The notes below the pieces were generated by a model, which saw only the letters and a program-made list of their open reading frames with translations, searched no databases and had not been told where the DNA came from. Below, piece after piece: positions 4,702 through 49,053 of a stretch of DNA of 64,000 nt (its first letter is position 1; the number at the start of each line of letters is the position of its first letter). The translations under genes and the position numbers were made by a program. The DNA lies in assembly GCA_963786635.1 (NCBI GenBank), contig CAWAZV010000008.1, forward strand, positions 234,051-298,050, given 5' to 3'. This DNA comes from an uncultured beta proteobacterium. Lineage in GTDB: Bacteria > Pseudomonadota > Gammaproteobacteria > Burkholderiales > Usitatibacteraceae.

Positions 4702-4703
4702 CG

Positions 4704-6633: not shown

Positions 6634-6653
6634 ACCGCCCCGGGTGCGCGGAT

Positions 6654-16356: not shown

Positions 16357-16387
16357 GGCAACTCCCTTGCGGGGAAGGGCTCGTGCC

Positions 16388-16719: not shown

Positions 16720-16752
16720 CTTGAAAACTCCTGTTGGTGGTGAAGGAAAAAT

Positions 16753-19700: not shown

Positions 19701-19902
19701 GATAGGTCACCTGGTTCTCGACGATCTGCGGCGCCTGCCCCGGGTAGGTCGTGCGGATGATGACCTGCGTGTCGGAGAGGTCCGGGATCGCGTCCAGCGG
19801 CGTGTGGAGCGTCGCCCACACCCCCCACGCCGCCAGGCCGATGGCGGCCAGCAGCACCAGGAAGCGGTTGGCGATCGACCAGAGGATGAGCCTCGCGATC
19901 AT
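16753..19902 (-). CDS. cusA: heavy-metal-efflux RND pump CusA (HME-RND)
   Basis: The intact 1049-aa segment starts at [18 protein letters not shown] within the 1962-aa read-through ORF. It is CusA/CzcA-like throughout. Its ATG overlaps the corrected cusB stop (ATGA). Confidence 0.95.
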
Positions 19903-27309: not shown

Positions 27310-28521
27310 CTAGCGGTGTCTCGTGCCGGTGTAGTACAGGCGCCAGCAGGTGAAGCCGGCGAGCATCATCGCCGCCATCGCCACCGCCATCCAGCGCGTG
27401 TCGTGGAAGACCGCGGGCGCGATGACGCCGGCGACGAGCGTGTTGATCATGCCCGGAGACGAAGCCCTGCAACGACGCCGCCATGCCGCGCCGCGTGGGA
27501 AAGAGATCGAGCGTGGTGAGGGAGATGGTCGGCATCGCCATGGCCGAGCCGATGGCGTAGAAGAAGATCGGAACCACGGCCCACGGGATCGACGGCGCGA
27601 ACGCGAAGCGAATAGGCGACGTTGGCGGCCGCGGAAATGCCCATGAACGTGTAGGCGCGCCGGATCGTCTGCGCGCGCGAAAGCTTTCCGGCCGCCCGCC
27701 CCGAGAGCTGCGAGCCGACGAGAATGCCCGCGATCGACGGAATGAAGAGCCACGAGTACTCGGTCGGCTCCAGCCCGAGGTGCGTCGACAGGAACATCGG
27801 CGCCGACAGGATGTAGAGGAAGAACGCATTGAAGTTGAAGCCCACGGCGAGCGAGAGCAGCAGGAACGGCCGGCTCGCCCCGACCTCGCGGTAGCCGCGC
27901 GAGCAGCGCCGCCGGATGAAAGGAGTGGCGGTGCTCTTCGGGAAGCGTCTCGCGCAGGAGCCGCGCGCCCGCCACGACGAGCACGAGACCCACCGCGGCC
28001 AGGAACCAGAAGATCGACTGCCACCCGAACGCCTCGAAGAGGAGGCCGCCGATGATGGGCGCGATGACCGGCGCCAGGCCGAAGAAGAGCGTGACCAGCG
28101 ACATCAGGCGCTGCGCGTCCTCCTCCTGGTAGAGGTCGCGGATCATGGCGCGCCCGACGACGACGCCGGCGCCGGTGGACATGCCCTGCAGCATCCGCCA
28201 GCCGATGAGCGCGTGCACGCTGGAGGCGAGTGCGGCGCCCACGGAGGCGACCGTGAAGACGGCGAGGGCCACGACGATCACCGGCTTCCTGCCGAAGCTG
28301 TCCGAGAGCGCCCCGTGGAAGAGGAACATGAAGCCGAAGGTCAGCAGGTAGGCCGAGAGCGTCTGCTGCATCTCGAGCGGTGTCGCGCCAAGCGCGACCT
28401 GCATGCCGCCGAAGGCGGGCAGGTAGGTGTCGACCGAGAACGGGCCCAGTGTCGCGAGCGCTCCCAGCATCGCCGCGAAAGCGATGCGGAAGGACCGCGA
28501 GCGGCGGTCGGCCGTGGTCAT
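27310..28521 (-). CDS. Bcr/CflA-family MFS efflux transporter; three frame corrections (near 27925, 27610, 27455)
   Basis: The reading cycles through all three minus frames and back. [37 protein letters not shown]...GRKPV... is followed by GFNFNAFFLYILSAPMF..., then FAPSIPWAVVPIFFYAIGSAMAMPT..., then MINTLVAGVIAPAVF.... Length is 1212 nt. Its ATG overlaps the cytochrome stop (ATGA at 28518-28521). Confidence 0.7.
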   Translation of the reverse strand: MTTADRRSRSFRIAFAAMLGALATLGPFSVDTYLPAFGGMQVALGATPLEMQQTLSAYLLTFGFMFLFHGALSDSFGRKPVIVVALAVFTVASVGAALASSVHALIGWRMLQGMSTGAGVVVGRAMIRDLYQEEDAQRLMSLVTLFFGLAPVIAPIIGGLLFEAFGWQSIFWFLAAVGLVLVVAGARLLRETLPEEHRHSFHPAALLARLPRGRGEPAVPAALARRGLQLQCVLPLHPVGADVPVDAPRAGADRVLVALHSVDRGHSRRLAALGAGGRKAFARADDPARLHVHGHFRGRQRRLFASRSRRRSRGPWFRSSSTPSARPWRCRPSPSPRSISFPRGAAWRRRCRASSPGMINTLVAGVIAPAVFHDTRWMAVAMAAMMLAGFTCWRLYYTGTRHR

Positions 28522-30417
28522 GGCTTCCCGTCGGGGACCGCGCAGCGGCGACTGCGCGCCGCATAGGTCGCCGCAAAGTCCGCCTGGGCGCGTGTCATCA
28601 CCGGCGAGTCGCCCGCATGGCAGGTGAGGCAGGCGCCGACCGTGAGGATGCGCCGCTGCTCCTCCGCGGAGAAGGGACGCGCGCCCTCGCGCGTGGACAC
28701 CATCCCGGTGCGCGTCTTCAGGAACCCCGTCCACGCGTCCTCGGGCAGCCCGTCGTGCGCGGAAGGCTTCTTCTCCGCGGTGAAATGCCAGCGGCCCGTG
28801 CCGCCCGTTACCACGTAGCGCAGCTTTCCCTTGCCGAAGCCCAGCGCCACCGGGTCGCTGTGGCAGGACACGCAGCTGCGCGCTTCGCGCCGGGTGGTGT
28901 GGGAGGAGAGCTTCGCGTACAGGCGGCGGTGGATGAGTTCGGGCGGCTTTCCGGCCTCGCGGTTGCGGTCGAACGTCATCACCATGCCCGGCACGAAGGT
29001 GTCGATGGCGCCGCGCGCGTTCCCCTCCGCGAGGACGCCCAGCGTGGGCGGCACCGCCTCGAACGGCCCGGCGGTTTCGTTCCAGGTGCCCTTCACCCAC
29101 TTCTGCGCGGCATGGTCGAAGCCCTCGCCGGCAGGGTCGAAGCTGGTGTGGCAGGTGCTGCAGCGCGGCGCCCACGCCGTGTGGCAACTGGTGCAGGAGA
29201 GTCGCTGGTGGCCCTTGTTCTCGGTGCAGGCGGCCGCCGGAGGCTTGAGCGGCAGCGCCTCTCCGGTGCGCTTGCGCAGCAGCTTCGCGCCCTTGCCCGG
29301 CTCCACGACCACGTTGACCAGCGGTTCGCCGTCGCGCGTCGTGCCCATGCGGCTACCCTGCGCGAGGGTCCAGCCGCGCAGCTTGTGCAGCAGGCGCGAC
29401 TCCGCATCGACGAACTCCGGCGCCACCGACACGAGGTTGCGCGCGTGGCAGTCCTCGCAGCCGACGCGCTGCTGCTGGCTCTTTCTCGCGACCTCCGCGC
29501 CCGCGCCCATCAGCTCGTTGGCGGTGTGGCAGTCGATGCACTCCATCCCGCGCTCGTGATGGACGTCGGCGACGATCTTCTCCACGTGCCGCCCGTCGTC
29601 GAGCCGCCGCGTCGCGCGGGAGGAATTGGGGACTGTCCCTAATTTGTCCGGCGCGGCGTTGTCGCCGACGGTCGCGCGCATCTCGTTCCACCCCTCGTAG
29701 CTCAACGCGATGCGCCCGGAGCGGCTGTGGCAGCCGAAGCAGTGGTCGTTGCGCGGATTGAGCGTGAGCGTCGGGTGTGCCGACGGAATCTCCTTGCGCT
29801 GCGCGCGCGGGATCTTCGCGTAGGTCGCGACTGCCCGGGCCGCCTCGGATCCCGTATTCCAGGTGGCACGCGTTGCAGCCGCCGCCCTGCGACTCCTGGC
29901 CGATGGGGCCCCATTCCGTCTTCGCCTGCCCGAGGTGGCAGCCGACGCAAAGCTCGCGCAGGTGGCTGTCCGCCACGCCGTGCCCGAGTCGCTGCGCGTG
30001 CGGGAGCGGTGCGCCGGGCGGGTCCGGCTCGCCGAGGACGGCGCGGTCGACCGCGATCACGCCCGCCATCGTCGTCATGATCGAGCGCTCGACGCGCGGG
30101 ACGATGGACGCGTGGCAACCGGCCTGGCCGCAGGTCCTGCCGGCATCGGCGAGGTTGCCGGGAACGAGGACCATGCCGGCGTGGGCGAGGTCCTTGTCCG
30201 TGGCCTTCGCGTCGCCCGCATGGCAGGAGGCGCAGCCGATCTTCGCCGGGGCGTGCGATCCGGCAAGGCCGGTCACGTTGCCGTGGCAGGCGAGGCAGCC
30301 TTCCCGAAGTCCGGTCGCCAGGCTCCCGCGCGGGCTGTCGCGAAACAAGTAGAGGAATGCCGCGCCCACGGCGAGGCCGGCCACGACAGCGAGCAGGAGG
30401 ACGGATTTCGCACGCAC
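28518..30417 (-). CDS. membrane-anchored multiheme c-type cytochrome (11 CXXCH plus 1 CX4CH); one frame correction near 29823
   Basis: The N-terminus comes from ORF 29353..30417: a TM anchor [25 protein letters not shown], then CLACH, CASCH, CGQAGCH, CVGCH, CNACH. My corrected bridge reads [48 protein letters not shown] 28518..29705 then supplies CIDCH, CEDCH, CTSCH, CSTCH, CVSCH and CLTCH. Confidence 0.8.
29624..29645. repeat. single copy of the AATTGGGGACTGTCCCTAATTT unit, inside the cytochrome coding sequence
   Basis: A 22-nt exact match to 46216-46237. The core GGGACTGTCCC is itself palindromic. It encodes ...[10 protein letters not shown]... in the cytochrome. Confidence 0.7.
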
Positions 30418-30441
30418 GCACGCATTCTATCGGGGCGCACC

Positions 30442-31939
30442 CTACATGGAGCCTCGCGATCGGTATTGCAGCGCCTCGGCGACGTGCTCCATGTGCAGCA
30501 TCGGGCTGCGCGCCAGGTCGGCGATGGTGCGGGCCACCCGGCGGGTGCGGTCGTAGCCTCGCGCGGAAAGTGCGTGCCGCGAGACCGCCTGGCGCAGCAG
30601 GTTGCGCGCCGCGGCGTCGAGCAGGCAGTGCCGGTTCAACTCGCCGCTGGCAAGCACGACATTCGGGTGACCCTGGCGTTCCAGCTGGCGCTCGCGCGCT
30701 GCCTGCACGCGCGCCCGGACCAGCGCGGAAGGTTCGCCGCCGGGCACCTCGTCCAGCTCGCGTTCGGGCAGTGCCGGCACTTCGACATGCAGGTCGATGC
30801 GATCGAGGAGCGGCCCGGACAGCCGGCCGCGATAGTGCGCGATGCGATCCGGCGTGCACCGGCATTGCGCGCTGTAATGCGCCGAGGAAGCCGCACGGGC
30901 AGGGATTCATCGCCGCCACGAGCTGGAAGCGCGCCGGAAAGTCCGCCTGCTGCGCGGCGCGCGAAATGGTGATGCGTCCGTTTTCCAGCGGCTCGCGCAG
31001 CACCTCCAGCACGCGCCGGTCGAACTCCGGCAACTCGTCGAGGAAGAGCACGCCGTGGTGGGCGAGCGAGATCTCGCCGGGGCGCGGCGGCGAGCCGCCA
31101 CCGACGAGGGCGACGGCGGAAGCCGTGTGGTGCGGTGCGCGCCACTCGCAAACGCCGAAGCGCTCGGGCGCGAAGCCGCGTGCGGTCAGGCTCTGTACGG
31201 CGGCGGACTCGAGCGCCTCTTCCTGCGACAGCGCCGGAAGAATGCCGGGCAGGCGCTGCGCCAGCATCGTCTTGCCGGTGCCCGGCGGCCCGTGAGCAGC
31301 AGCGAATGCCCGCCGGCCGCGGCGATCTCGAGCGCGCGCCGCGCCTGCGCCTGGCCCTTCACGTCGGCGAGGTCCGGCCAGGTCGCCTCTCCCGCCCGTG
31401 CCGCTCCCTCGATCCTCGCGAGCGGCTCTCGCCCTGCCAGGTGCGCGCACACCTGCGCCAGCGACCGCGCGGGATGGACGAGCGCTCCCGGCACGAGAGC
31501 CGCCTCGCTCGCCGAAGCCTCGGGCAGCACGAACGCGCGTGCATCGCGGTGCGCGGCCAGCGTCATCGCGAGCGCGCCGCGGATCGGGCGCAGGTCTCCG
31601 GAGAGCGCCAGTTCGCCCGCGAACTCCAGCGCGGCGAGCGGCGGCTTCGGAATCTGCGCGGTCGCGGCGAGGATGCCCAGGGCGATCGGCAGATCGTAGC
31701 GGCCGCTTTCCTTGGGCAGGTCCGCGGGCGCGAGGCTCACGGTGACGCGCGACTGCGGCACGGCGAAGCGCGCCGTGAGCAGTGCGGCACGCACGCGGTC
31801 GCGCGCCTCCTTCACCTCCGTTTCCGGCAAGCCCGACGACGTGCATGCCGGGCAGGCCCTGGCCCACGTGCACCTCCACGCGCACCAGCGGCGCCTGCAT
31901 GCCCGCGAGACCGCGGGTGTAAACGACTGCAAGCGACAC
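30442..31939 (-). CDS. comM: YifB/ComM-family Mg-chelatase-like AAA+ protein; at least three frame corrections (near 31855, 31290, 30880)
   Basis: The GTG start gives [25 protein letters not shown]. It is followed by [17 protein letters not shown], Walker [37 protein letters not shown], and after correction [34 protein letters not shown]. The tail is ORF 30442..30780. Confidence 0.8.
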
Positions 31940-32083
31940 TGCAATGACCCTCTGCCCGGAAGGCCGGGGCGTGGCGGGGCCGGCGGTGCTTCCGCGCCTG
32001 TGGTGGGAGCCGCGATCGGGCGCGGCGTGCCTTGGTCCGTTCAACGCCTTGCCCGGGACTCAGTTGACCGTCGTGCCGGCGCC

Positions 32084-33230
32084 TCACGCCTTCAGGTCGG
32101 CGTTCGCGCTCATCGACCGCAGCCGCTGCGCGAAGGCGTAGCGGGCCATCAACCGCCGGTCCAGGAGGATGCGGGCGACGCAATCCACGACGATCATCAC
32201 GACGCCCGCGAGGGGCAGGACGATGATGAGCCCCAGCACGCCGGCGACGGCGCCGCCGATGAACAGCAGCAGCACCGACACCAGCGGATGCATCTGCAGG
32301 CTGCGGCCGATGGTGAGCGGCACGAACACGAAGTCGTCGAGGAGGCGCACCAGCAGGAAGAGCGCGATGGCCGCATAGACCGTGCCCGGGCCGCCGGCCC
32401 CGTCCGCCACGGTGACCAGGACCACGATGATGCAGCCGATGATGGAGCCGACGATGGGAATCCATCCCAGCACGGCCGCCAGCAGCGCGAGGGCCATGGC
32501 GCTGGGGATGCCCAGCACGGCCAGGCCAACGCCCAGGCACGCCGTGTCGATGAGGGTGAGGTACAGCAGGCCCTGGAAGTAGGACCGCGCCATCGTGTCG
32601 ACCCGGTCCACCAGGTGGAGCGTGCGCTCGAAGAACGCGTTCGGCACGGCGCGGATGAGCCGGTTGACGAAGCGGCGCCCGTCCCGGAGGAAGAAGAACG
32701 CGAGGAACGGCGCCAGCAGCAGCGAAGGCACCCACGCGGCCGCGCCGATGAGCGCGCCGGTCACGTGTTCCTTGACGAACCGCTGTCCCAGCTCCGAGGC
32801 CTTGCGGGGAAACGCGTTCTGCAGGTCCCACTGCGCCATGAAGCCGAACCGGGCCTCCAGTCTCGCCCAGCACGCGGCCGACGAGGCCCTTGCCGCTCTC
32901 GACGTAGTTCCAGAACGCCACCTCCCCGCTCGCGCTGTTGGCGACGACCCACGCCGAGAAGGGGACCATCACGAGCACGGCGGCAACCGAGAACAGGCCC
33001 GACACGACGGCCGCGGCCGACTCGTGCGACATGCCCGCGCGGGACAGGTAACGCACGGCCGGGAAGAGGATGTAGTACAGCACGATGGCGAGGAGGAACG
33101 GCACGACGAGCCAGAGCGCGTGCTGCAGGGAAACCAGCAGCAGCGTCGTGAGGCCGAACGTGGCCAGCCAGGTGAGCGGGCCCGCGGAGCCCACGTCCGA
33201 GGGCGCTGCCTCGCGGTTGCGAGGGCTCAC
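32084..33230 (-). CDS. AI-2E family transporter (PerM/YhhT/TqsA-like permease); one frame correction near 32865
   Basis: The N-terminus is in the frame of ORF 31812..33230 (…LWLVVPFLLAIVLYYILFPAVRYL…). The remainder is ORF 32084..32839 (…LLAAVLGWIPIVGSIIG…). Its GTG start overlaps the stop of the upstream cNMP gene (GTGA at 33227-33230). Length is 1147 nt. Confidence 0.8.
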
Positions 33231-33704
33231 AGCGGCAGTTCCGAGACTACCCCGGTCTGCTCGCGCAATTGCCGCGCCAGCTGGCGGGCGATCTGCAGCG
33301 TGATCTTCAGCGCGATCGCCTTGTGGGACTCGGCGAGGCCGTCGAAGTCACGCCGGGAGAGCGTCTGCAGAAGGCATTCCTGCGCGGCGCGCGCCTGCGC
33401 CGACCGCGGGTAGCCCCCGAGGATGGCGAGCTCGCCGAATGCGCTCCCCGGGCCGATCTCGGCGATTTTCCCGGTCTCCGGCTCGCCCTGCCGGCAGATC
33501 AGCACCTTGCCGGAGATCACGACGTAGAGCGCCTGCGAGTCCTCGCCCTGGTCGAAGATGACCTCGCCCTGCTCGTAGCGGCGCTCGTGCAGCAGGCCGG
33601 CGACCACGCGATGTTCCTTCGCATCGAGGGCCGAGAACAGCGAGACGTGCGCCAGGCCGTTGCGGGCCGCGCGAGTCCTTCCTTTGCCGGGTCAGGGGAA
33701 ACAT
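33227..33704 (-). CDS. stand-alone cyclic-nucleotide-binding (CAP effector domain) protein; one frame correction near 33660
   Basis: MFPLTRQRKDSR is in one frame. The rest, ARNGLAHVSLFSALDAKEHRVVAGLLHERRYEQGEVIFDQGE...YVVISGKV...GPGSAFGELAILGGYPRSAQARA, is in another and contains the phosphate-binding cassette GE...RSA. Length is 478 nt. Confidence 0.7.
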
Positions 33705-33949
33705 GGGGGCGGTTGGCGGTCAGTTGTCGCGCGGGGACGGATCCCCGGAGGCAAGCGGATCGGGATCCTGATGCTCATGCCGCGATGATGTGAGCATGCG
33801 TGGCGCCCGTCAATGTCGCGAGCCGCGGCGATGGCCAACGCCGATCGGTCAGAGCGGATTCGGGACGCGTCCGCTTCGATCCGTTATCATGGTTCGCTCC
33901 GCATCCGGCGACGGGTGCGCTCGGATGGCGCGGCGCACGGGGGGACAGG

Positions 33950-35220
33950 GTGAATCAGGGGGACGGGCAGGCGACAGGTGCCGGCGGGCTGACGGCCTGC
34001 AAGGAGTGCGACCTGCTGCACCGCATCGCGCCGCTCGCGCCCGGGGGCAAGGCGCTGTGCACCCGATGTGCGTCGCCACTGTATCGCCACGTGCCCGACA
34101 GTCTCGACCGTGCGTGCGCGCTCTACCTTGCCGCGTTGATGCTTTGGGTGATGGCGAACGCATTTCCGTTCGTTTCCCTCAAGTTGAGCGGGCGTGTCGA
34201 GGACAACGTGATGCTGTCGGGCCCGCTTGCGCTGGCGCGCGAGGGGATGCCCGAGCTGGGTCTTCTGGTGTTCCTGACCAGCATCCTGTTTCCGCTCGCG
34301 ACCATCGCCGGTTCGCTCTACGTGCTGCTGCCCCTGCGCTTCGGCTGGCGCTTCCCCGGCGCCGCGCCGGTCTACCGCGTGGTCCGGCTGCTGGACCCCT
34401 GGAGCCTCGTCGGCGTGTTCATGCTGGGCCTGCTGGTGCGATCGTGAAGCTGCTGGACCTCGCCGACGTGGTGCCGGGCACCGGGCTGTATGCCTTCGCC
34501 GGCTTGCTGCTCGCGACCGCCGCAGCGAACGCGAACCTGGACCACGGGGCGATCTGGCCGCGCGTCGGTCCGCTGCCTGCGGGACCTGGCCCGGTGCCGG
34601 CGGCCACGGCAGCCGCGCTCGGCCTGACGGGCTGCCCCACCTGCGAACTGCTGGTGCCGGCCGCGCCGCCGGGCGGCCGCGCGCACTGTCCGCGCTGCGG
34701 CAGCCCGGTCCACGGCCTGCGCCAGCCCGACAGCATCGCGCGCACCTGGGCGCTGCTCGTTTCCGCGGCGCTGCTGCTGATCCCGGCCAACCTGTATCCG
34801 GTGATGACGGTGATCCGGTTCGGCCAGGGCGAGCCGAACACCATCCTGAGCGGCGTGATGCACCTGATCGATTCCGGCATGTGGCCGCTGGCGATGCTGG
34901 TGTTCTTCGCCAGCTTCGTGGTGCCGCTCACCAAGATCGCGGTGCTGGTCCTGCTGCTGGTGACGGTGCACCGGGATCTGCCTGGCGCCGGCGCGACCGT
35001 ACCTTGCTCTACCGCGTCACCGAGGTGGTGGGCGCCTGGTCGATGGTCGACATCTTTCTCGTCGGCATCCTGGTCGCGCTGGTGAACCTCGGCGCGCTGG
35101 CGACCGTGCGCCCGGGCGTCGGCGCGATCTTCTTCGGCGGCCGCGGTGGTGCTCACCATGCTCGCGGCCATGAGCTTCGATCCGCGCCTGATCTGGGACC
35201 GCGCGGAGCGCCCGCGATGA
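33950..35220 (+). CDS. pqiA: paraquat-inducible protein A (PqiA, duplicated zinc-ribbon membrane protein); three frame corrections (near 34440, 34985, 35138)
   Basis: It has two CxxC...CxxC modules (CKECDLL...CTRC and CPTCELL...CPRCGS) with PqiA-type TM blocks. The corrected C-terminus is AAVVLTMLAAMSFDPRLIWDRAERPR followed by the stop. The start (GTG at 33950) is uncertain. Confidence 0.75.
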
Positions 35221-36906
35221 GCGAGGCGCACGACACCCGGGACAGCGGCGCCGCCCGAGCCGGTGCTGCGCCGGCGCTCGGGGCCGTCGCTGGTCTGGCT
35301 GATCCCGCTGCTCACCGCGCTGATCGGCGGCTGGCTGATCTACAAGACGATTTCGGAGAAGGGTCCTGCGCTCAGCATCAGCTTCATGCACGCCGAGGGC
35401 ATCGAGGTCGGCAAGACGCGCATCAAGTACAAGAACCTGGACATCGGCGTGGTGGAAGGGCTGCGTTTCAGCGACGATTTCGCGCGCGTGGTGGTGCTGG
35501 CGCGGCTCAACAAGGAGGCGGCGCCGTTCCTGAAGCGCGGCACGCGCTTCTGGGTGGTCAAGCCGAGCCTCGGGCTGCGCGGCGTTTCGGGCCTGAGTAC
35601 CCTGATCTCGGGCGCCTTCATCGAGATCGAGCCCGGCCAGGGCGCGACAGAGACGAATTTCATCGGCCTCGAGGTGCCGCCGGTGGTCGCCGCGAGCGCG
35701 GCCGGGCGCAGGATCGAGCTGGTGACCACGCGGCTCGGCTCGATCGACCGGGGTTCGCCGCTCTACTACCAGGGGATCCTCGCCGGCGAGGTGCTGGGCT
35801 ACGAGATGGCCGACGACTACCGCAGCGTGCTGGTGCACGCCTTCGTCAAGGAGCCCTTCGACCGGCTGCTGCGTTCGAGCACGCGCTTCTGGCACGCCAG
35901 CGGAGTCGAAGTGGCGCTCGGCGCCGACGGCCTGCGCGTGCAGACCGAGTCCATCCAGGCCATGCTGTTCGGCGGCATCGCCTTCGACACGCCCGATGCG
36001 CAGGACGGCGCGAGCGAGAACACCGACGGGCTGGTGTTCACGCTGTTCGACGACCGGCGCTCGGTCCAGGACCGCGCCTATACGAGCAAGGCCAGGTTCG
36101 TGCTCCATTTCGGCGAATCGGTGCGCGGCCTGGCGGTCGGGGCGCCGGTGGAATTCAAGGGAATCAAGATCGGCGCGGTAACCGGAATCCGGCTCGAGTA
36201 CGAGCCGAAGAGCGGGACATTCCTGATCCCGGTGGTGATCGAAATCGAGCCCGAGCGCGTCCTCGAGCGTTCACCGGCGCGCGGCGAAGGCCTGCGGGCA
36301 GCGCCGCAGGCGACCCTCCAGGCGCTCGTCAAGCGCGGCCTGCGTGCGCGCCTGCAGACCGGCAACCTTCTCACCGGACAATTGTTCGTCGAGCTCGACA
36401 TGCATCCGAAGTCGAAGATCCGGCTGGTGCAGGCCGCCGGGCCGTATCCCGAGCTGCCGACCATCCCGGGAAGCATCGGGCAGATGACGGTATCGGTCGA
36501 GAGCATCCTCGCCAAGCTCGACCGCATCGATCTCGAGGCCATCGGCACGGATCTGCAAGGCACGCTCGCCGGCACCAGCAAGCTGGCCAATCAACCGGAA
36601 TTGCAGCGCTCGATCGCCGATCTGTCGGCCTCGCTCGCCAGCCTGCGCAGCATCCTGCACAAGGTGGACCAGCACGCCGAGCCGATCGCCGCGAACCTGG
36701 ACAAGGCGCTCGTTTCGGCGCGCGAAACGCTGACGCTGCTCGACGGTGTGCTCGCACCCGACTCGCCGTTGCACGAACGCAGCTTGCGTCTTGCCGAGGA
36801 GCTGCGCGAGGCCGCTCGCTCGATCCGCGCACTGGTGGACATCCTGCAGCGCGATCCGCAATCCGTGATGTTCGGCAGGAAGGCTCCACCGGAGAGGACC
36901 CAGTGA
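35217..36906 (+). CDS. pqiB: MCE-domain protein PqiB (intermembrane transport); a possible frame correction near 35255, or alternatively a GTG start at 35263
   Basis: ORF 35263..36906 has an N-terminal TM (SLVWLIPLLTALIGGWLIY) followed by three MCE repeats (e.g. GKTRIKYKNLDIGVVEGL, GSPLYYQGILAGEVLGY, GAPVEFKGIKIGAVTGI). The ATG at 35217 overlaps the pqiA stop (ATGA). Confidence 0.85.
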
Positions 36907-37514
36907 TGCACAAGTTCGCCATTGCCGCTTTTGCGGCCGCACTTGCCGTGGCCCTCGCGACGGGTTGCTCCTCCCTGCCGCCGGTGCGGTTCTATGTCGT
37001 CACGCCGCTCGCGGGTCCGGCGCCGGCCACGCGGGCGCCCGGCCCTGGCGTCGTGGTCGCCGCCGTGCGCCTGCCCGAGTACCTCGAACGCCCGCAACTG
37101 GTCACGCGCAGCGGCGACAACCGGCTGCAGCTGGAGGAGTTCCACCAGTGGGGCGGGAACCTGGGCAAGGACCTGACGCGCGTGCTGGCGGAGAACCTTT
37201 CCCTGCTGCTCGGCAGCGACGCGGTGGTCGCGGCGCCGCATGCGCTGCGCATGCGGCCGGATTACCGCGTGGAACTCGAGGTGCTGCGGTTCGAGCGCGC
37301 CGGCGATGCGCGGGTGCACCTGACGGCCAAGTGGTGGCTTCAGCGCGGCGCGGGCGGCTCGCCGCTGGCCAGCCCCACGACCACGCTGGCCAGCGAGCCG
37401 CTGGCCGAGGCGGCGAGTGCGGAGCTCACGGTCGCGGCGATGAGCGGCGTCTACGGCGAACTTTCGCGTGTCATCGCGCAGGCGATCACGCGCCAGGAGA
37501 TGGCGGCGCGATGA
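36906..37514 (+). CDS. pqiC: lipoprotein PqiC/YmbA (ABC-type transport auxiliary lipoprotein family)
   Basis: An inner ATG overlaps the pqiB stop (TGATG). The lipobox is LATGCSS, followed by VRLPEYLERPQLVTRSGDNRLQLEEFHQWGGNL, which is typical of this family. Confidence 0.8.
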   Translation: MHKFAIAAFAAALAVALATGCSSLPPVRFYVVTPLAGPAPATRAPGPGVVVAAVRLPEYLERPQLVTRSGDNRLQLEEFHQWGGNLGKDLTRVLAENLSLLLGSDAVVAAPHALRMRPDYRVELEVLRFERAGDARVHLTAKWWLQRGAGGSPLASPTTTLASEPLAEAASAELTVAAMSGVYGELSRVIAQAITRQEMAAR

Positions 37515-38345
37515 GCGGAGCGATCGCGAGCACTGGCTGCACTGGCGGTACTTTGCCTGGTTCCGGTTGCGGCGCTCGCTGCGCCGAGCGCCTCCGAAAT
37601 CATCGACGGGGTGCGCTCGAACCGTCCGCAGGCCTGCTGCATCTACCAGGAGCTGACCATGATCCTGTCGGATCCCGCGGGCGAAGGCGGGGTGCGGAGA
37701 ATCCGCTGGTTCGAACGCCATGAGCCGGACGGCGGCAGCCGGTTGCTCCTCGTGTTCGTCGCGCCGGCCGATGTGCGCGGCGCCGCCATACTGGTGACGC
37801 GCGACCCGTCCGGCGCCACGCGGGGCGAGGTCCACCTGCCGGCGCTCGGCAGGCCGCTCGACCTGGTCGCCAGGACTGCGGGCGCGATGCCGCTGGTTGG
37901 CAGCGACTTCAAGCTTGCCGACCTGTTCAGGGGGGCGCCGCGCGATTTCACCTACGAGCGCGAAGCCGACGCGGAGATCGACCGCAGCGTGCACTACGTC
38001 ATACGCGCCACACCGGTCAAGGGCGCGGAGCAGCGCACCGGGGGAGGTCCGCGCCGCCACTACGTGCGCAAGGGCGACTATTTTCTCGTGCGCACGGAAT
38101 TTCATGACGTGCGGGGCGTGCTGGCGCGCCGCCAGAGCTTCCGCGACGCCAGGCAGGTCGAGCCCGGCGTCTGGCAGGCCGACATGATCCTGATGGAAGA
38201 CTTCGGCGAGCGGCACCGCACGCTGCTCAAGGTCGAGCGACGCGTCTTCTCGCCCGATTACGCCCCGGCCGAAATCTTCTCCCGGCAGTGGCTGGCCGAG
38301 GGGCGCCACCTGCTCATCGGCGGCGACGCGCCGTTCGGGCCCTAG
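37511..38345 (+). CDS. LolA-like outer-membrane lipoprotein-sorting-type periplasmic protein; one frame correction near 37530
   Basis: The ATG overlaps the pqiC stop (ATGA at 37511-37514). After correction the signal peptide reads [28 protein letters not shown]. Then come LLVFVAPADVRGAAILV, HLPALGRPLDLV and GSDFKLADL, resembling the LolA_like family that usually accompanies MMPL exporters. Length is 835 nt. Confidence 0.65.
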
Positions 38346-38360
38346 GAAGGGGCGCGCGAC

Positions 38361-41094
38361 ATGCTGCAGAAACTGCTCCTGGCCGGTGTCGAACGCCGCT
38401 ACGCCCTGGTCCTGTGCCTGCTGGCGCTCACCGTGCTGGCGGCATTGGGCGTGCCCAAGGTACGGATCGACACCGGCTTCGACCGGTTGATCCTGGAGAA
38501 GAGCGCCGACCGGCAGACCTACCAGCGGGTGACGCGCGAGTTCGGCTCGGACAACCAGACGATCGTCTACGTGCGCGACGCCGCGCTGTGGACGCCCGAG
38601 AAGCTGGCGGTGCTCGAGCGCCTGCACCGCACGCTCGGGGCGCTGCCTGCGGTGGAGCGCATCGACGACCTCTATACGCAGCGCAGCCTGCGCAGTATCG
38701 ACGGCAGGGTGGCCGCCGGCCCGCTGCTCTCCGGCGTGCCGGCGGACGCCGAGGCGGCTGCGAGCGCCCGCCGCAATGCGCTTGCCGATCCGCTGGCACT
38801 GCGCAACCTGATCTCGGCCGACGGCAACGCGGTAGCGCTGACGGTCTCGCTGCGCGAGCGCGCCGACACCGAGGCGGACCGCACCGCCTACTACGCCATC
38901 GAACAGGCGCTTGCGCCAGCGCGTGACACGTTCGCCGAAGTGTTCCAGGTCGGACCGCCGCGCATCGGCGTCGAACTCGAGCGCAGCCTGCTGCACGACC
39001 TGAAGGTGCTGCTGCCGGTGTCCGCGGTGCTGCTGGTCCTTGCCGTGCTCGCGATCTCCCGCAGCCTGTTTGCGGCACTGGTGCCGCTGGCGACCGCCGG
39101 GTTGAGCCTGCTGTGGACGCTGGGAATGCTCGGTCATGCCGGCATTCCGCTCGGCATCCTGAGCGCGATCCTGCCCTCGCTGGTGGTGGCGATCGGTGCG
39201 ACCGGGAGCCTGTACTTGATGGAAGGCTACTTCAAGGGGCTCGCCGCTTCGGCAGACGGGGGGCGCGCCGCCGCCACCCGGTACCTGGTGACGCATCTCG
39301 GCGCGTCGGCAATCCTCACGGTGGCCACTACCGCAATCGGCTTCGCAGCCAACGCCTTCATCGGCATCGCGCTGATCCGGGACTTCGTGGCCGCCGCCAC
39401 GTTCGCCATCCTGGCCAATGGCGCCGTCACGCTGCTGCTGGTGCCGCTGCTGCTGGCGCTCGCCGGGCCGCGGCGCATGCCGCGCTGCGCAAGGCGCCGA
39501 CGAGGCAAATCCGGTGGCCGGCATCGCCTTGCAGGCGCTCGGCCTGATGCGCGGGCGCCTGGTCTTCTACGTGCTCGCACTTGCGGCGGCGCTGGTCGTG
39601 GCGTTCATCTACCAGGTGGAGCGGTTCCACGTGACGAACGATCCGCTGACCTACTTTCACGCCGATCGCGCGCTGGCGCTCGACGCGAGGCGCGTCCAGC
39701 ACGACCTGGCCGGGGTGAAGGTGTTCTACATCACGCTCGAGTCCGGCAACGAGCGCGCATTCCAGGACCCGCCAAACCTGCAGAAGCTCGTGGATATCCA
39801 GGCCTTCGTCGCCAAGCAGGGCGTCTTCGATCGCAGCCTGTCGCTTGCGGACAAGCTCTCGCTCGTGAACCGCGAGCTGAACGACGGCCGTCCCGAGGCC
39901 TACCGTGTGCCGGCGACGCGCAAGCTGGTGGCGCAAAGCCTGCTGTTCTTCCAGCGGCGCGACCTCGAGCCGTACGTCAGCCAGGATTTCCGGCGCGCGA
40001 ACATCGTGGTGCGCCACGACGTCAAGGACTCGACCACGCTGAACAACCATGTCGAGGAACTGCGCCAGGTCGTGCGCCACATCGCGGGGCCCGACATGGC
40101 CGGCGCGGTGACGGGGGAGAACCTGATGGTCAATGCCGCGGCCGATCGCCTGCTCAGGGGCCAGGTCGAGGCGATCTCGATCCTGGTGACGGCGATCTTC
40201 CTCGCGATGTCGCTGATGTTCACCTCGTTCAAGGGCGGGCTGATCGCGCTGGTGCCGAGCATCCTGCCGATCGCGCTGATGTTCTTCTCGATGGTGCTGC
40301 TGGACATCCCGTTGAACGCCGGCACCGTGATGGTGGCGACCATCGCCATCGGCATCGCGATCGACGGCACCATCCGCCTGTTCCTGCGCTACAACGCGCG
40401 GTGCCGCAGGACCTCGAACAACGACGCGGCGATGCTCGAGACCGTAAGGGAGGAGGCCAGGCCGGTGGTCGCGGCGAGCCTCGCGCTGGCGATCGGCTTC
40501 GGCGTGCTGCTGCTGTCGGACCTCACGATCGTGGCGCAGTTCGGCGCACTTGCGGCCTGCACCATCCTGTTTTCGACATTCACCAACCTGCTGGTCACGC
40601 CGATGGTGATGTCGCGCATCCGGCTGGTCGGCCTGTACCAGATCCTCGCCATGTCGGTGCAGCGCCAGGTACTCGACGACAGCCCGCTGTTCCAGGGCAT
40701 GACGTCATACCAGGTGCGCAAGGCGATCCTGATCTCGGAGTTGCACGAGGTCGCCGCGGGGACGCGGCTCATCGAGCAGGGCACGATGGGCAGCAGCATG
40801 TACCTGGTGGTGAGCGGCGAGCTGGAGGTGGTGCGCCGCGACGACGCAAGCGAGCACAGGCTGGCGCTGCTCAAGCCCGGGGACGTGCTCGGCGAGATCG
40901 GGTTCATCCGCGCCACGCGCCGCACCGCCGACGTGCGCGCGCTGGGACCGGTTTCGGTCCTGCGCTTCGACCGCGACAAGCTCGCGAACGACCTGCGCTT
41001 CTTCCCCAGGATCGTCGCCAAGCTCAACTTCAACATCAGCTGCATTCTTGGCCAGCGGCTCGCCGAACTGGTCGAATCCGGCGCGCCCGAGTAG
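38361..41094 (+). CDS. MMPL/RND-superfamily exporter (two 6-TM bundles) fused to a C-terminal cyclic-nucleotide-binding domain; one frame correction near 39480
   Basis: The first half is ORF 38361..41336 up to LLLALAGP. The second half is ORF 39418..41094. The last ~150 aa read SPLFQGMTSYQVRKAILISELHEVAAGTRLIEQGTMGSSMYLVVSGELEVV...PGDVLGEIGFIRATRRTADVRA, a CAP_ED fold with a GE...RTA cassette. Length is 2734 nt. Confidence 0.75.
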
Positions 41095-41098
41095 CCGG

Positions 41099-41902
41099 TC
41101 AGCAACCCCGGGGGCCGGGAAACCTGGCTTCACGAAGGAGCTCCGCGAGAACCGCGCCGTACTCGGCGCAGGCGGCGACCTCCTCGGGTTCGACGTGCGC
41201 GGTCGGCCAGGTCAGCGCGAGTCCCCGCGCATCCCACAGGAATGCCGCCCGGCCGTGGTGCCCCTCGAGCAGCCAGTCGCGGACCGACGGCGAGAGACGC
41301 TGGAGCAGCCCCTGCGGTTTGCCGAACGCCGTGTAGGCGAGACCGAAGGCATCGGCAGGAAGCGGCAGGTGGTCTTCCGGCGTGATCGACAGGGAATCGG
41401 CGCGGTCATTGCCGAAATTGAGCCTGACATACGCCTGGCCCGCCGCCCAGGCCGCCTTGGCCACCAGCCCGCCGAGAAAGCCGCTGCCGCGATTGGCCTT
41501 GGCCGCCTGCGGGTGCACACCTTCGGGAAGCGCCATCAGCAACAGCTCACCGCCGCCAGTTCCGGCCTCGGGTGCGGTCCACCGGGTGTAGCGAGTCGAG
41601 CCATTGCGACGGGTGGCAAGTCCGTCGCCAACCTCCGACGTGAGCATCGTCACCTCGGCATGCCACGGCACGCCCCGCGTGGTGCCGCTGAAACGGTGCG
41701 TGCCGGGTATGACACCCTGATTGGTGTCAAGGCCGCCCGGCGCGGTGTAGGCCATGCCATGCTGCCGCGCCTCTTCCGTGTTGCGCGCGACAAGCGCCTC
41801 ACGACGCCCGCTCGCGCCGCGCCGCAGGAGATAGCCGCCGAAAAGCGCGAACAGGACCAGGGGCCAGTATTCGCGCAGCAACACCATCAGCGTGTACTCC
41901 AT
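41099..41902 (-). CDS. hypothetical membrane-anchored protein (267 aa), no recognisable domain
   Basis: An intact ORF with an N-terminal TM (WPLVLFALFGGYLL). It follows the OmpA-like gene on the same strand. I do not recognise the family. Confidence 0.45.
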   Translation of the reverse strand: MEYTLMVLLREYWPLVLFALFGGYLLRRGASGRREALVARNTEEARQHGMAYTAPGGLDTNQGVIPGTHRFSGTTRGVPWHAEVTMLTSEVGDGLATRRNGSTRYTRWTAPEAGTGGGELLLMALPEGVHPQAAKANRGSGFLGGLVAKAAWAAGQAYVRLNFGNDRADSLSITPEDHLPLPADAFGLAYTAFGKPQGLLQRLSPSVRDWLLEGHHGRAAFLWDARGLALTWPTAHVEPEEVAACAEYGAVLAELLREARFPGPRGC

Positions 41903-41950
41903 CGCCTCACTCCCTTCCCGCCCCGGCCGGCAAGCGCCACCGGCAGGGCA

Positions 41951-42854
41951 TCAACGAAGCACCATCTCCACGCGCCGATTCTTCGCGCGCCCGGCCTCGT
42001 CCGCATTGCTGGCTACCGGCGCGAACGGCCCCACGCCCTCGGCGACCGAGGCGATCCTTCGCAATGCCGTGCTGGCCCGGCAGCGCCGCCACGACACTCG
42101 CCGCGCGATCGCGCGAGAGCTTCAGGTTGTGGTCGGCGGCGCCCTGCATGTCGGTGTGGCCGATGATGTACACCTTGCTGCCTGCGTTCGCCTTCAGCCA
42201 CTTGGCCATCTCCGCCAGCGTCGGGCCGGACTCGGGCTTGATGGTGGCCTTGTCGGTGTCGAAGTAGATGCCGTAGAAGACGACCTTGCCGCCCGTGCCG
42301 ATGTCCTTGGCGATCTGGTCGGCCGACAGCACGATCGTCTGCTCCATCGCCTTGACGCGCACGATCTTGTGCATGATGGCGCTGCACACCTTGCTGTCGC
42401 CGCGCCCGCAGCCGACGCTGCCCCAGTACTCGGCGCCGCCCTTCTCGATCCGGTAGTGGATGGACTTGCCGTTCGACGGCGTGGAGAGCACGGTGCCGCC
42501 GCCCTTCTGGAGGGCCGCCAGGAAGTTGCGCTGCAGTTCGAGAGGGGAGGGGTGCGACCCGGAAGCATCCCTGTCGATTTCGTCGAAGTAGTACCAGTAC
42601 TCCCCCTCCTTCTTGACCGTCGCGAAGTTGCTATCGAGCTTCGCGGGGTCCCTGGCCGCCTCGAGTTCCAGCTCCAGGAAGCGCGAGCGCTCGCAGCCGG
42701 AAAGGAAGGCGCCGGGAAACCTCTCGAACACCGGGTTGGGCTGGCACTTCGCGTTGTCCTTCGACTTCGCCTTTTGCGCGGCGGCATCGGTGGCGGCGAA
42801 CGCGAACAGCGCCGCGAAGGCGCCGGCAAGCACGAGTCGGACAGGGGCTTTCAT
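41951..42854 (-). CDS. OmpA-family (peptidoglycan-binding) protein with an unassigned N-terminal domain; one frame correction near 42048
   Basis: It has a signal peptide, then a Cys-containing N-domain, then FDTDKATIKPESGPTLAEMAKWLKANAGSKVYIIGHTDMQGAADHNLKLSRDRAASV. The corrected tail is VAEGVGPFAPVASNADEAGRAKNRRVEMVLR followed by the stop. Length is 904 nt. Confidence 0.75.
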
Positions 42855-42907
42855 GAAAATCCTTTCTTCTGGTTGTTGTTACCCGCATCCGGCCGGGCGG
42901 CGCTTCC

Positions 42908-43150
42908 TCAAGTGTTGGCGGAAAGCCGCGCCTCCAGCGCGGCGACTTTCGCTTCCAGCTCGGCCACGCGGATCCGGGCGCGGGCGAGGACTTCCGACTG
43001 CACGTCGAATTCCTCGCGCGTGACCAGATCGAGGCGCGCGAACGCGGTGGTGAGGACGGCACGGGCGTTCTTTTCCAGTTCACGCGCCGGGTTGTTGGCG
43101 GCGGCTTCGGCGAGACGGGCGGCGATTTCGCCCAGCAGCTTTTCGTTCAT
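42908..43150 (-). CDS. ubiK: ubiquinone biosynthesis accessory factor UbiK (YqiC/BMFP family)
   Basis: The inner start MNEKLLGEIAARL is followed by ...LDLVTREEFDVQSEVLARARIRVAELEAKVAALEARL. This matches the E. coli UbiK core LDLVSREEFDVQ as I recall it. Confidence 0.7.
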   Translation of the reverse strand: MNEKLLGEIAARLAEAAANNPARELEKNARAVLTTAFARLDLVTREEFDVQSEVLARARIRVAELEAKVAALEARLSANT

Positions 43151-43193
43151 TGCAATTCCCCGGTTGCGTGATCCGTTGACCCACCGCATGTCC

Positions 43194-43239
43194 GCACCGA
43201 TTTGGTGCGCGACTGCACTCCCCTACACCAGCGTGGTGC
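43194..43239 (+). promoter_or_regulatory. two NtrC-type enhancer half-palindromes (GCACC-N5-GGTGC and ACACC-N5-GGTGC)
   Basis: The sites are at 43194-43208 and 43225-43239, about 31 bp centre to centre and 60-110 bp upstream of the sigma54 promoter. They match the TGCACC-N5-GGTGCA consensus. Confidence 0.5.
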
Positions 43240-43300
43240 GTCCCATCGAGGGGTCGGAAATAAATCCTTCACAAACAAAGCCTTGTGCACGACTCCGCGA

Positions 43301-43316
43301 TGGCACGCGTCCTGCT
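43301..43316 (+). promoter_or_regulatory. sigma54 (-24/-12) promoter TGGCACgcgtcCTGCT
   Basis: It has exact GG-N10-GC spacing and TGGCAC at -24. It lies about 50 nt upstream of the porin ATG that heads the porin-glnK-amtB run. Confidence 0.6.
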
Positions 43317-43366
43317 AGTTGTTGCACTGCGCAATTATTTTCAACCCTGACCTCAAGGATACCGCT

Positions 43367-44564
<1,198 letters not shown>

Positions 44565-44583
44565 GACACAAGGGGAACCATCC

Positions 44584-46122
<1,539 letters not shown>

Positions 46123-46145
46123 GTTTCCAAGAGAGGCCGAAATTC

Positions 46146-46172
46146 ACGGGCACTTCGGTGCCCGTTTTTTTT
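46146..46172 (+). terminator. rho-independent terminator of amtB
   Basis: ACGGGCAC-ttcg-GTGCCCGT stem-loop followed by T8, 24 nt after the amtB stop. Confidence 0.85.
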
Positions 46173-46174
46173 GC

Positions 46175-46242
46175 CGTGAAAATCAGGGACAGTCCCCAAT
46201 TTCTGGAAATTCGGAAATTGGGGACTGTCCCTAATTTTCACG
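46175..46242. repeat. 29-bp-arm inverted repeat built from two GGGACNGTCCC-containing units (one C/A mismatch, 10-nt loop)
   Basis: The arms are CGTGAAAATCAGGGACAGTCCCCAATTTC and GAAATTGGGGACTGTCCCTAATTTTCACG. It lies between the amtB terminator and hemC. The right-hand unit recurs exactly (22 nt) at 29624-29645. Confidence 0.8.
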
Positions 46243-46287
46243 TGGTAGGATTTCCGCGCCTTTCACCTCCACGCCGATTCGACCCCC

Positions 46288-47223
46288 TTGCCTCCCCAAC
46301 GCCTCCGCATCGCCACGCGCGAGAGCCGCCTCGCGATGTGGCAGACCGAGCACGTCGCCGCGCGCCTCACCGAGCGCTACCCCTGGATCGCCGTCGAGAT
46401 CGTCGGCATGACGACCAAGGGCGACCGCATCCTCGACCGCCCGCTGGCGCAGGTCGGCGGCAAGGGCCTCTTCATCAAGGAACTCGAGGTCGCGCTGGCC
46501 GACAACCTGGCCGACATCGCGGTGCACTCGATGAAGGACGTGCCGATGGATCTCCCGGAGGGTTTCGCGATGCTGCCCTTCGGTCCGCGCGAGGACGCAC
46601 GGGATGCGTTCGTCTCCATCCGCCACGCCTCGCTCGCGGCACTCCCGCCGGGCGCGGTGGTGGGGACCTCGAGCCTGCGGCGCGAATGCCAGCTGCGGCG
46701 CGCCTATCCCACGCTGGTGATCAAGCCCCTGCGCGGCAACGTGAATACGCGCCTGGCCAAGCTGGAAGCTGGCGACTACGACGCGATCATCCTTGCCGCG
46801 GCGGGCCTCAAGCGCCTCGGTTTCGGCGAACGCATCCGCGAGCTGCTGCCCATGTCGCTGGCCCTCCCGGCCATCGGGCAGGGCGTGCTCGCGATCGAGT
46901 TCCTTGCCGCGCGCACCGACCTCGCCGAACTCCTCTCGCCATTCGTCGATCCCGCCGCGCATGCCGCGGCCGAGGCCGAACGGGCGCTGGGCCTGGTGGT
47001 GGAGGGCAGCTGCGAGGTGCCCCTGGGGGCACACGCGAGCATCGCGGGCGATTCCCTCACCCTCGAAGGCTTCCTGGGGCTTCCGGACGGGACGCGGCTC
47101 GTGCGCGAGCAGGTCCAGGGGTCCGCAACGGAGGCGCGCGCGCTCGGGCAGGCGCTGGGAGAGCGCATTCTTGCCCGGGGCGGGCGCGAAGTGCTCGACC
47201 TCCTCGCCCTGCCGCGGCAGTGA
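46288..47223 (+). CDS. hemC: porphobilinogen deaminase (hydroxymethylbilane synthase)
   Basis: The 311-aa ORF has a TTG start in the track. It contains LRIATRESRLAMWQTEHV, KGDRILDRPLAQVGGKGLFIKELE and GNVNTRLAKL. Confidence 0.9.
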   Translation: MPPQRLRIATRESRLAMWQTEHVAARLTERYPWIAVEIVGMTTKGDRILDRPLAQVGGKGLFIKELEVALADNLADIAVHSMKDVPMDLPEGFAMLPFGPREDARDAFVSIRHASLAALPPGAVVGTSSLRRECQLRRAYPTLVIKPLRGNVNTRLAKLEAGDYDAIILAAAGLKRLGFGERIRELLPMSLALPAIGQGVLAIEFLAARTDLAELLSPFVDPAAHAAAEAERALGLVVEGSCEVPLGAHASIAGDSLTLEGFLGLPDGTRLVREQVQGSATEARALGQALGERILARGGREVLDLLALPRQ

Positions 47224-47988
47224 ACGCGGCTGGCCCCCTGGCGGGACTCGGCATCGTCCTCACGCGCCCGCGCGCGCAGTGCGAGGCCCTCGCCGCCGCG
47301 CTGGAGGCGCAAGGCGCGCGCGTCATCGTGTTCCCGGCGCTCGACATCGTGCCCGTCGAACTGTCGGCAGCCAGCCGCGAAGCTCTCGCCACGTTGGGCT
47401 CGGCGGCGCTCGCCATCTTCGTGAGCGCCAATGCCGCCGAGCATGGCGTCGCGGCGGCACGCCAGCGCCGGGCCGTGGCCCTCCGGCACTCCCGTGGCCG
47501 GCATCGGCGAGGCCACCGCGGCCCGGCTTCGCGCGGCCGGCTTTGCGCACGTGATCGCGCCCGCCACCGGATTCGACAGCGAATCGTTGCTCGCCTGCCG
47601 GGAGCTCCAGGACGTGGCCGGACGCCGCGTCGTCATCTTCCGCGGCGTGGGCGGACGCGAGCACCTGCGCACCACGCTCGAGGGGCGCGGGGCGACGGTG
47701 GCCTACGTGGAGTGCTACCGCCGCGAGCGGCCGGCCTCCGATCCCGGCGAACTCCTGGCGGCAGCCGCGCAAGGAAATATCGCTGCCGTCCATGCAATGA
47801 GCGCCGAAACGGTGGACAATTTCCTGGCTCTCGCCGGCACGGCGTCGTGGTCGTCCGTGGCGCTGGTGGTGCCGCACCCGGCCATCGCGCGCCACCCGAG
47901 CGCGGCCGCGTTCGGCAAGGTGGTGGTCGCCGGACCCGGCACGGCGAGTCTCGTCGAGGCGCTTGCACAATTGCGAAAGGATTCATGA
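47220..47988 (+). CDS. hemD: uroporphyrinogen-III synthase; one frame correction near 47460
   Basis: The GTG overlaps the hemC stop (GTGA). The N-terminus LAGLGIVLTRPRAQCEALAAALEAQGARVIVFPALDI is in the frame of ORF 46158..49046. The remainder is ORF 47431..47988. Length is 769 nt. Confidence 0.75.
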
Positions 47989-49046: not shown

Positions 49047-49053
49047 GCCGGCG

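Follow-up and report, generated by a model that had tools for sequence, protein, structure and literature searches.

The stretch of DNA considered here is 64,000 nucleotides of contig CAWAZV010000008.1 from an uncultured beta proteobacterium (assembly GCA_963786635.1), and it is called the window below, with positions counted from its first letter. On its plus strand lies a block of about 7.2 kb in which pqiA, pqiB and pqiC are followed by a gene for a LolA-like protein and a gene for an RND (resistance-nodulation-division) superfamily transporter, the MMPL protein, which ends in a cyclic-nucleotide-binding domain (CNBD). All five family assignments of the initial annotation were upheld by Pfam profile searches of the frame pieces, and the five genes form, as that annotation had proposed from the sequence of the window, one closely packed, same-strand unit; its order recurs in relatives. 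The overlaps on which it relied are present at the coordinates it gave: pqiA and pqiB share ATGA at 35217-35220; TGATG at 36904-36908 lets the pqiB stop overlap the pqiC ATG (open reading frames [ORFs] 35263..36906 and 36906..37514); and pqiC and the LolA-like gene share ATGA at 37511-37514. The LolA-like stop at 38345 is separated by a 15-nt spacer from the MMPL ATG at 38361, and the MMPL gene ends at 41094. The features are collected in Table 1.

Table 1. Features of the five-gene block and of the divergent region upstream of it, in window coordinates
Feature	Coordinates	Strand	Remarks
Whole block: pqiA-pqiB-pqiC-LolA-like-RND/cNMP	33950..41094	+	Profile searches and junctions
pqiA	33950..35220	+	Inner-membrane protein of the PqiA/LetA family, two modules; start uncertain
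pqiB	35217..36906	+	Three MCE domains and C-terminal helical needle; open from GTG 35263
pqiC	36906..37514	+	Predicted outer-membrane lipoprotein, intact, 202 aa
LolA_like/TP_0789-like gene	37511..38345	+	About 277 aa, type-I signal peptide, predicted periplasmic
MmpL/HAE3-type RND body	38361..40641	+	12 transmembrane helices and two periplasmic domains
CNBD fused to the RND C terminus, cytoplasmic	40642..41094	+	Pfam cNMP_binding
Divergent stand-alone cNMP-binding gene	33227..33704	-	About 158 aa corrected; raw ORF 33227-33607 is 126 aa
Divergent intergenic region, presumed promoters for both transcription units	33705..33949	.	

Recurrence of the five-gene order

A protein search with the frame-corrected RND sequence returned 258 proteins at E<=1e-10; the 120 of them that were listed all combine MMPL with cNMP_binding, and nearly all are full-length (907-947 aa, 49-86% identity). 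A scan of species-representative genomes identified 215 genomes with an RND–cNMP relative, 80 of which were kept for locus analysis. According to the record titles, the carriers belong to the Beta- and Gammaproteobacteria, Desulfobacterales/Thermodesulfobacteriota, Nitrospinota, Verrucomicrobia and Magnetococcales. In relatives at 82% (L001 and L002), 63% (L003) and 56% identity (L004), the order is PqiA-MlaD-ABC_trans_aux-TP_0789-like-MMPL/cNMP, with overlaps of 1-11 nt and with flanking genes that are unrelated in each of the four loci.

Hidden Markov models were built for the four proteins encoded upstream of the RND gene and used to annotate every locus; 61 of the loci have at least 4.6 kb of upstream DNA. 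All four upstream genes are present on the same strand in 54 of the 61 loci, or 55 when L051 is counted as complete, since only an artefact of ORF merging had made that locus score as incomplete. Five of the remaining loci are without pqiC only, and one, from a member of the Nitrospinia, has the LolA-like gene only. The recurrence of the five-gene order in more than 50 independent genomes, from uncultured Gram-negative species, places it beyond chance. Both the adjacency of PqiC and LolA_like and the fusion of MMPL to a cNMP-binding domain are conserved across several phyla; thus, profile search and conservation, the computable ones among the tests that the initial annotation had named as capable of overturning it, came out in its favor.

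The proteins of the block also vary together. Pairwise identities of PqiA, PqiB, the LolA-like protein and the RND protein correlate at r=0.78-0.93 over 54 loci, and the start codon overlaps the upstream stop codon by 4 or 1 nt at 45/62 junctions scored for PqiA, 43/69 for PqiB, 37/65 for PqiC and 55/77 for the LolA-like protein. Of those overlaps, 32, 18, 18 and 37, respectively, have the form ATGA. Clustering of all flanking ORFs from the approximately 80 loci found no further conserved gene, for example, no cyclase or lipid-biosynthesis gene; no other family occurs in more than 14 loci, and none extends beyond a single clade. Because order, co-inheritance and coupling are kept and no further neighbors are shared, the conserved unit is exactly these five genes, inherited together and mostly translationally coupled.

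Individual loci depart from the common layout. The clade without pqiC comprises L010, L012, L014, L015 and L023, all from Burkholderiales metagenome-assembled genomes (MAGs), with the genes at approximately 4200-10700 in each locus. In a Verrucomicrobia MAG (L068, 4468-5546), pqiC and the LolA-like gene lie apart, with approximately 1 kb inserted between them.

The encoded proteins

Both halves of the RND protein match the Pfam MMPL model (E=2e-18 and 7e-17; 67.1 and 61.8 bits versus a cutoff of 20.5), and the body carries a Sterol-sensing Pfam signature besides. Its best NCBIfam model is HAE3 (TIGR00921), followed by MMPL and HpnN, every one of them below cutoff, and the protein falls into no curated subfamily (HAE3 TIGR00921, 173.7 versus 351.9; HpnN TIGR03480, 89.6 versus 751.85; BstA, 24.5 versus 1400). 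A sequence search of the PDB with the RND body gave marginal matches to Patched, HpnN and NPC1 (E ~1e-3), and a fold search was therefore needed. The model, built from 44 family members (pLDDT, 82.6; pTM, 0.74), has a topology of 2 x (1+5) transmembrane helices with two periplasmic domains. In Foldseek searches it is closest to MmpL4 and MmpL5 (TMt 0.70-0.75, E ~1e-23), followed by MmpL3 (TMt 0.56-0.72) and then by NPC1L1, Patched and HpnN (approximately 0.58 for HpnN). The mycobacterial MmpL3/4/5 proteins and RND proteins of the HpnN/Patched/NPC1 type share the arrangement of 12 transmembrane helices and two periplasmic domains. However, identity to the MmpL/HpnN-type proteins is only 12-17%, there is no MmpS partner here, and the C-terminal domain is a CNBD. 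In the tenth transmembrane helix (TM10), the motif GIAIDGT, with the aspartate of GxxxD, is conserved in the family; the protein of the window alone continues as DGTIR at this site, compared with DGTIH in the other 15 aligned members. The acidic motif GSTEDTH of TM4 is kept in the gamma- and deltaproteobacterial and Magnetococcales members of the family alignment.

The initial annotation had placed a CAP-effector-type domain at the end of the MMPL protein, and the Pfam cNMP_binding model confirms it (PF00027, 68.6 bits versus a cutoff of 27.5, E=5e-19). The best PDB sequence matches of this domain are the CNBDs of PKA, PKG and SthK (E ~1e-11). Its phosphate-binding cassette, G-E-x-G...R-T-A, is invariant in alignments of 16 and of 44 members, and judged by these residues the domain retains those that bind the ligand. 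The SthK/MloK1 channels and the CNBDs of PKA and PKG have the same canonical GE.G...R(T/S)A cassette. In the structural model, TM12 is followed by a flexible linker and then by a beta-roll CNBD with its C-helix, which necessarily lies on the cytoplasmic side. A C-terminal cytoplasmic CNBD after the last transmembrane helix is thus common to SthK/MloK1-type membrane proteins and to this fusion. The effector differs: it is an RND transporter here and an ion channel, a kinase or a transcription factor in the known systems.

PqiA is recognized by the Pfam PqiA model on three pieces in three frames (E=1e-28, 1e-32 and 2e-16). It consists of two tandem modules, each with a CxxC...CxxC zinc ribbon, seen in the translations as CKEC...CTRC and CPTC...CPRC. 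The intact PqiA ortholog of L001 passes TIGR00155 (274.6 bits versus a cutoff of 260.35) and aligns end to end with Escherichia coli PqiA (33% identity over 408 aa). The start of pqiA is uncertain and may be GTG 33950 or the position aligned to 33992, where the relatives start. PqiB contains three MlaD stretches, the mammalian cell entry (MCE) domains of Table 1 (Pfam E=2e-33, 35263-36906), together with an N-terminal transmembrane helix and a long C-terminal helical region. It matches the NCBIfam PqiB model over positions 9-533 of 542 with 442.8 bits, under the cutoff of 525, and its identity to E. coli PqiB is 34% over 539 aa (residues 17-534), C-terminal helices included. PqiC matches ABC_trans_aux (Pfam E=2e-36, 36906-37514) and has the lipobox LATGC; its identity to E. 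coli PqiC is 24% (E=2e-7), and its NCBIfam pqiC match is weak (26 bits, below the equivalog cutoff). Judged by these alignments, all three Pqi proteins are homologous to their E. coli counterparts over the full length and colinear with them.

The likeness to E. coli extends to the gene order A-B-C and to the overlapping junctions. In contrast, pqiABC of E. coli stands alone, with uup upstream and rmf downstream, whereas here the LolA-like and RND–CNBD genes follow. PqiB and PqiC also differ in scoring under their NCBIfam equivalog cutoffs, and one clade is without pqiC. PqiABC of E. coli is a paraquat-inducible MCE system for lipid transport across the envelope and is implicated in phospholipid transport (PMC13017536). 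The LetAB structure paper (PMC13017536) leaves it unclear whether LetA, a member of the PqiA family, is passive or proton coupled.

The fourth gene encodes a protein of Pfam family PF17131 (LolA_like, now TP_0789-like), with E=2e-23 and 83.3 bits versus a cutoff of 30 for the piece at 37611-38345. The ATG at 37511 is confirmed by intact 277-aa relatives (90-92% identity), whose sequences begin MSGAIAAL. Like the rest of its family, the protein has a type-I signal peptide and lacks a lipobox. For a relative with 92% identity, an AlphaFold model (pLDDT, 85.6) was compared with known structures by Foldseek and gave TM scores of 0.86-0.91 to 3bk5, 9tp6 (LolA3 of Porphyromonas gingivalis) and 4z48, versus only 0.3-0.6 to true LolA and LolB structures. 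From the signal peptide and the model, the protein is predicted to be secreted, not lipidated and of LolA-superfamily fold. LolA3, 3BK5 and 4Z48, which are LolA paralogs of the PF17131/DUF1329 type, share this fold (TM ~0.9) and the Pfam family, but their identity to the protein is about 22%, and no Pqi or CNBD context is reported for any of them. According to PMC13103446, LolA3 does not pair with LolB and has no known role. Canonical LolA of the Lol pathway was considered for the gene and ruled out by the low TM scores to true LolA (0.3-0.5) and by the absence of lolCDE and lolB neighbors from the annotated loci. The general pairing of LolA_like proteins with MMPL exporters, cited in the initial annotation, is borne out by two distant LolA_like homologs that adjoin plain MMPL genes.

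Reading-frame breaks and genomic surroundings

The genes of the block are not open as deposited. The raw sequence contains seven ±1-nt frameshifts across approximately 8 kb, which were placed by three-frame translation, by tblastn with the proteins of an intact relative, L001, and by DNA alignment to L001 (84% nucleotide identity). Three 1-nt indels fall in pqiA (~34439, ~34977 and ~35139) and one in pqiB (~35238, codons 8-12), where the N terminus MSE...AAPPEPVLRRR matches L001 solely after frame correction. The LolA-like gene has a 1-nt insertion at ~37521-37529, after codon 6, and that of the RND gene, at ~39486-39488, falls in the cytoplasmic loop joining its two halves. A frameshift at ~33650 puts the N terminus of the stand-alone cNMP protein in another frame. 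The RND gene call of the source assembly itself is a 526-aa fragment (P0049, 100% identical).

A codon-usage Viterbi path over the whole 64 kb revealed approximately 19 further same-strand, mid-ORF frame switches elsewhere in the window, among them breaks in a cus-type metal efflux cluster, in hem genes and in the gene for an AI-2E transporter. Examples lie at 5388, 6227, 7460, 9531, 21995, 23888, 27456-27898, 29846, 30849, 32860, 47492, 58505 and 62593. Past each switch outside the block, the preceding frame runs on without a stop for 90 to >5000 nt. Once frame corrected, the block contains no internal in-frame stop; at family-invariant columns, the RND protein differs at 8/191 positions, compared with 0-9 in other members; and intact LolA-like relatives at 90-92% identity exist. 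Because similar frame breaks occur window-wide, no internal stops appear, invariant columns are kept and close relatives are intact, the frameshifts are most likely indel errors of the assembly and not decay of the operon. The assembly is indel rich and probably a long-read MAG. Since 1-nt indels are found throughout, a gene-level reading of the window needs frame correction, and the G+C content of approximately 70% makes spurious long ORFs abundant as well.

The divergent gene upstream of pqiA encodes a stand-alone cNMP-binding protein (Pfam cNMP_binding E=2e-20, 33227-33607, minus strand). Its mates in a 90%-identity cluster are 158 aa long and begin MLSLTRQRKDSRGP, which places the true start at ATG 33704. 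The 246-nt gap to pqiA given in the initial annotation fits this start and the pqiA GTG at 33950; its pqiA end is less secure, given relatives that start at the position aligned to 33992. The same annotation described the operon as flanked by two cyclic-nucleotide-binding modules, and this part did not hold as a feature of the family: the stand-alone gene lies upstream only in L007 (80%) and L008 (78%) and is absent there in the 82% relative and in every more distant locus. It is therefore a lineage-specific neighbor outside the conserved module. Its match to the CRP model is confined to the N-terminal half (positions 24-134 of 214). A role as a CRP-type regulator of the operon was rejected for this 158-aa CNBD, which matched no helix-turn-helix family and is not conserved with the operon.

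Between the two divergent genes, a promoter and terminator scan found a single sigma-70-like site (33813-33785, minus strand) and terminator-like sites at chance level. The intergenic region is approximately 80% conserved with L007 and L008 and contains invariant blocks, and its alignment with these two loci showed no recognizable operator or regulatory element. An Rfam scan of 33000-41500 at E<=1 gave no match.

Further upstream on the minus strand are the AI-2E-family transporter (31812-33230), of which just the initial ~90 residues can be recognized ahead of a frameshift, and a Mg-chelatase/ComM-like AAA protein (29702-32044). More distant, at 14890-22641, a multicopper oxidase gene (14890-16356, minus strand) adjoins the cus-type heavy-metal efflux cluster; the OEP, CusB/HlyD, CusF and CusA/ACR_tran domains of the cluster are all read within a single 1962-aa ORF, presumably an effect of stop codons having moved out of frame. 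Directly downstream of the RND gene is a convergent 267-aa ORF (41099-41902, minus strand) with no Pfam match, which is not conserved beside the operon elsewhere. It is followed by an OmpA-family gene (41907-42854, minus strand), a Gcw_chp gene (43319-44179), glnK for a P-II protein (44226-44564) with amtB (44584-46122), hemD/hemX read as one 962-aa ORF (46158-49046) and hemY (49054-50226). The downstream region at 41907-50226 is ordinary chromosomal context.

A candidate cyclic-nucleotide-gated envelope transport module

The initial annotation regarded the architecture as undescribed, and our literature searches found no description of the block. In the library searched, no paper ties Pqi to MMPL, LolA-like or cNMP proteins; PqiB and MMPL occur together in a single paper, where MmpL stands only in the reference list. 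The searches also found no description of an RND–CNBD fusion and none of second-messenger control of an RND or MCE system. The components belong to known families, and what is new is apparently the combination of an MCE system, an RND/LolA-like pair and a fused CNBD. A precedent is AmeABCD of Castellaniella defragrans, in which an HAE3 RND pump, co-encoded with a LolA-superfamily periplasmic protein and an outer-membrane protein, confers tolerance to hydrophobic monoterpenes (PMC6394551). Both systems are conserved cassettes in which an HAE3/MmpL-like RND protein is co-encoded with a secreted LolA-superfamily protein and with parts that reach the outer membrane. However, AmeABCD has a DUF1302 beta-barrel, a DUF1329 protein and a COG4447 protein and neither a cNMP domain nor MCE proteins, whereas here PqiB and PqiC span the periplasm and reach the outer membrane, and the LolA-like protein belongs to PF17131. 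Genes of the AmeABCD type (DUF1302, DUF1329 and COG4447) are absent from the annotated blocks of L001-L004.

We lean toward reading the block as a single envelope transport module for lipid or another very hydrophobic cargo, gated by a cyclic nucleotide. Like the initial annotation, we infer the lipid routes, the joint action of the two halves and the cyclic-nucleotide control. In such a module, the RND pump, powered by the proton motive force, would extract cargo from the inner membrane; the soluble LolA-like protein would receive or escort it in the periplasm; and the PqiA–PqiB–PqiC tunnel would make the connection to the outer membrane. The cytoplasmic CNBD, on binding cAMP or cGMP, would turn the pump on or off and the flux with it.

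Several observations weigh against this single-module reading. Nearly all carriers are MAGs, and the conserved neighbors include no biosynthetic gene. The clade to which the window belongs has GATGSL(H/Y)LMEG in place of TEDTH in TM4 (~39190-39230); without the acidic motif, proton coupling in that clade is only putative. In the clade that lacks pqiC, the LolA-like start lies right at the pqiB stop and leaves no room for the gene, which raises the question of whether the LolA-like protein replaces PqiC or pqiC lies elsewhere in the genome. In a Magnetococcales MAG (L005/L042, 1-6803), pqiAB and the RND/cNMP gene are divergent and have a Ser/Thr kinase gene between them; this contig is outside the 61 loci, having too little upstream DNA. 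The Nitrospinia MAG (L072) has the LolA-like gene alone ahead of the RND gene, with no pqiABC nearby. The variants without pqiC, without pqiABC or with divergent pqiAB indicate that the parts are separable, and gene order alone cannot tell one machine from two co-regulated machines.

A more specific version of the single module is a hybrid trans-envelope machine, in which a proton-driven RND protein, through a LolA-like adaptor, would load or energize the PqiB/PqiC tunnel. Lipid flux to or from the outer membrane would then be under allosteric gating by cytoplasmic cAMP or cGMP, acting on the C-terminal CNBD of the pump. We offer this version tentatively, and it is rather doubtful at present.

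The block may instead hold two autonomous systems that are merely co-transcribed, each moving lipids on its own, for instance, with distinct cargo or in opposing directions, and with their levels balanced by the shared operon. The two halves do occur apart, as in E. coli pqiABC, which has no RND neighbor, and in the distant LolA_like genes that stand beside plain MMPL genes without Pqi, and the loci without pqiC or pqiABC fit such independence. However, the five-gene order, the translational coupling and the co-variation are kept across phyla, and pqiAB adjoins the RND–cNMP gene on the same strand in 59/61 loci, which is tighter than usual co-regulation. We consider this explanation possible but on the unlikely side.

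An efflux or tolerance system for toxic hydrophobic compounds, similar to AmeABCD and with PqiB and PqiC replacing the outer-membrane and adaptor parts, is improbable. The RND part scores best against HAE3, and an HAE3 cassette with a LolA-superfamily periplasmic protein does confer monoterpene tolerance in the case of AmeABCD (PMC6394551). However, no catabolic or xenobiotic-related neighbors are conserved, the four annotated loci contain no DUF1302 outer-membrane protein or COG4447 protein, the RND fold is nearest to the lipid-exporting MmpL proteins, and PqiABC is implicated in phospholipid transport (PMC13017536). Finally, a decaying pseudogene cluster, in which the seven frameshifts within approximately 8 kb and the 526-aa MMPL call would reflect real mutations, is very improbable given comparable mid-ORF frame switches all over the 64 kb, housekeeping-type genes included, lesions that are all of ±1 nt with no in-frame stops once corrected and substitutions at family-invariant positions that are not raised.

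The finding bears on how MCE tunnels of the PqiABC/LetAB type are powered, including whether LetA is passive or proton coupled, and on the direction in which they move lipids. The conserved linkage of pqiABC with an RND transporter and a carrier is a natural experiment that suggests a functional tie between two transport principles, and the compact block of approximately 7.2 kb could be tested heterologously in E. coli despite its uncultured hosts. The CNBD, if it acts as proposed, would put envelope lipid transport under direct post-translational control by a second messenger. If true, the hybrid machine would represent the first envelope lipid transporter gated by a second messenger as well as the first MCE–RND hybrid, and it would supply an energy coupling that has so far not been established for PqiA/LetA systems.

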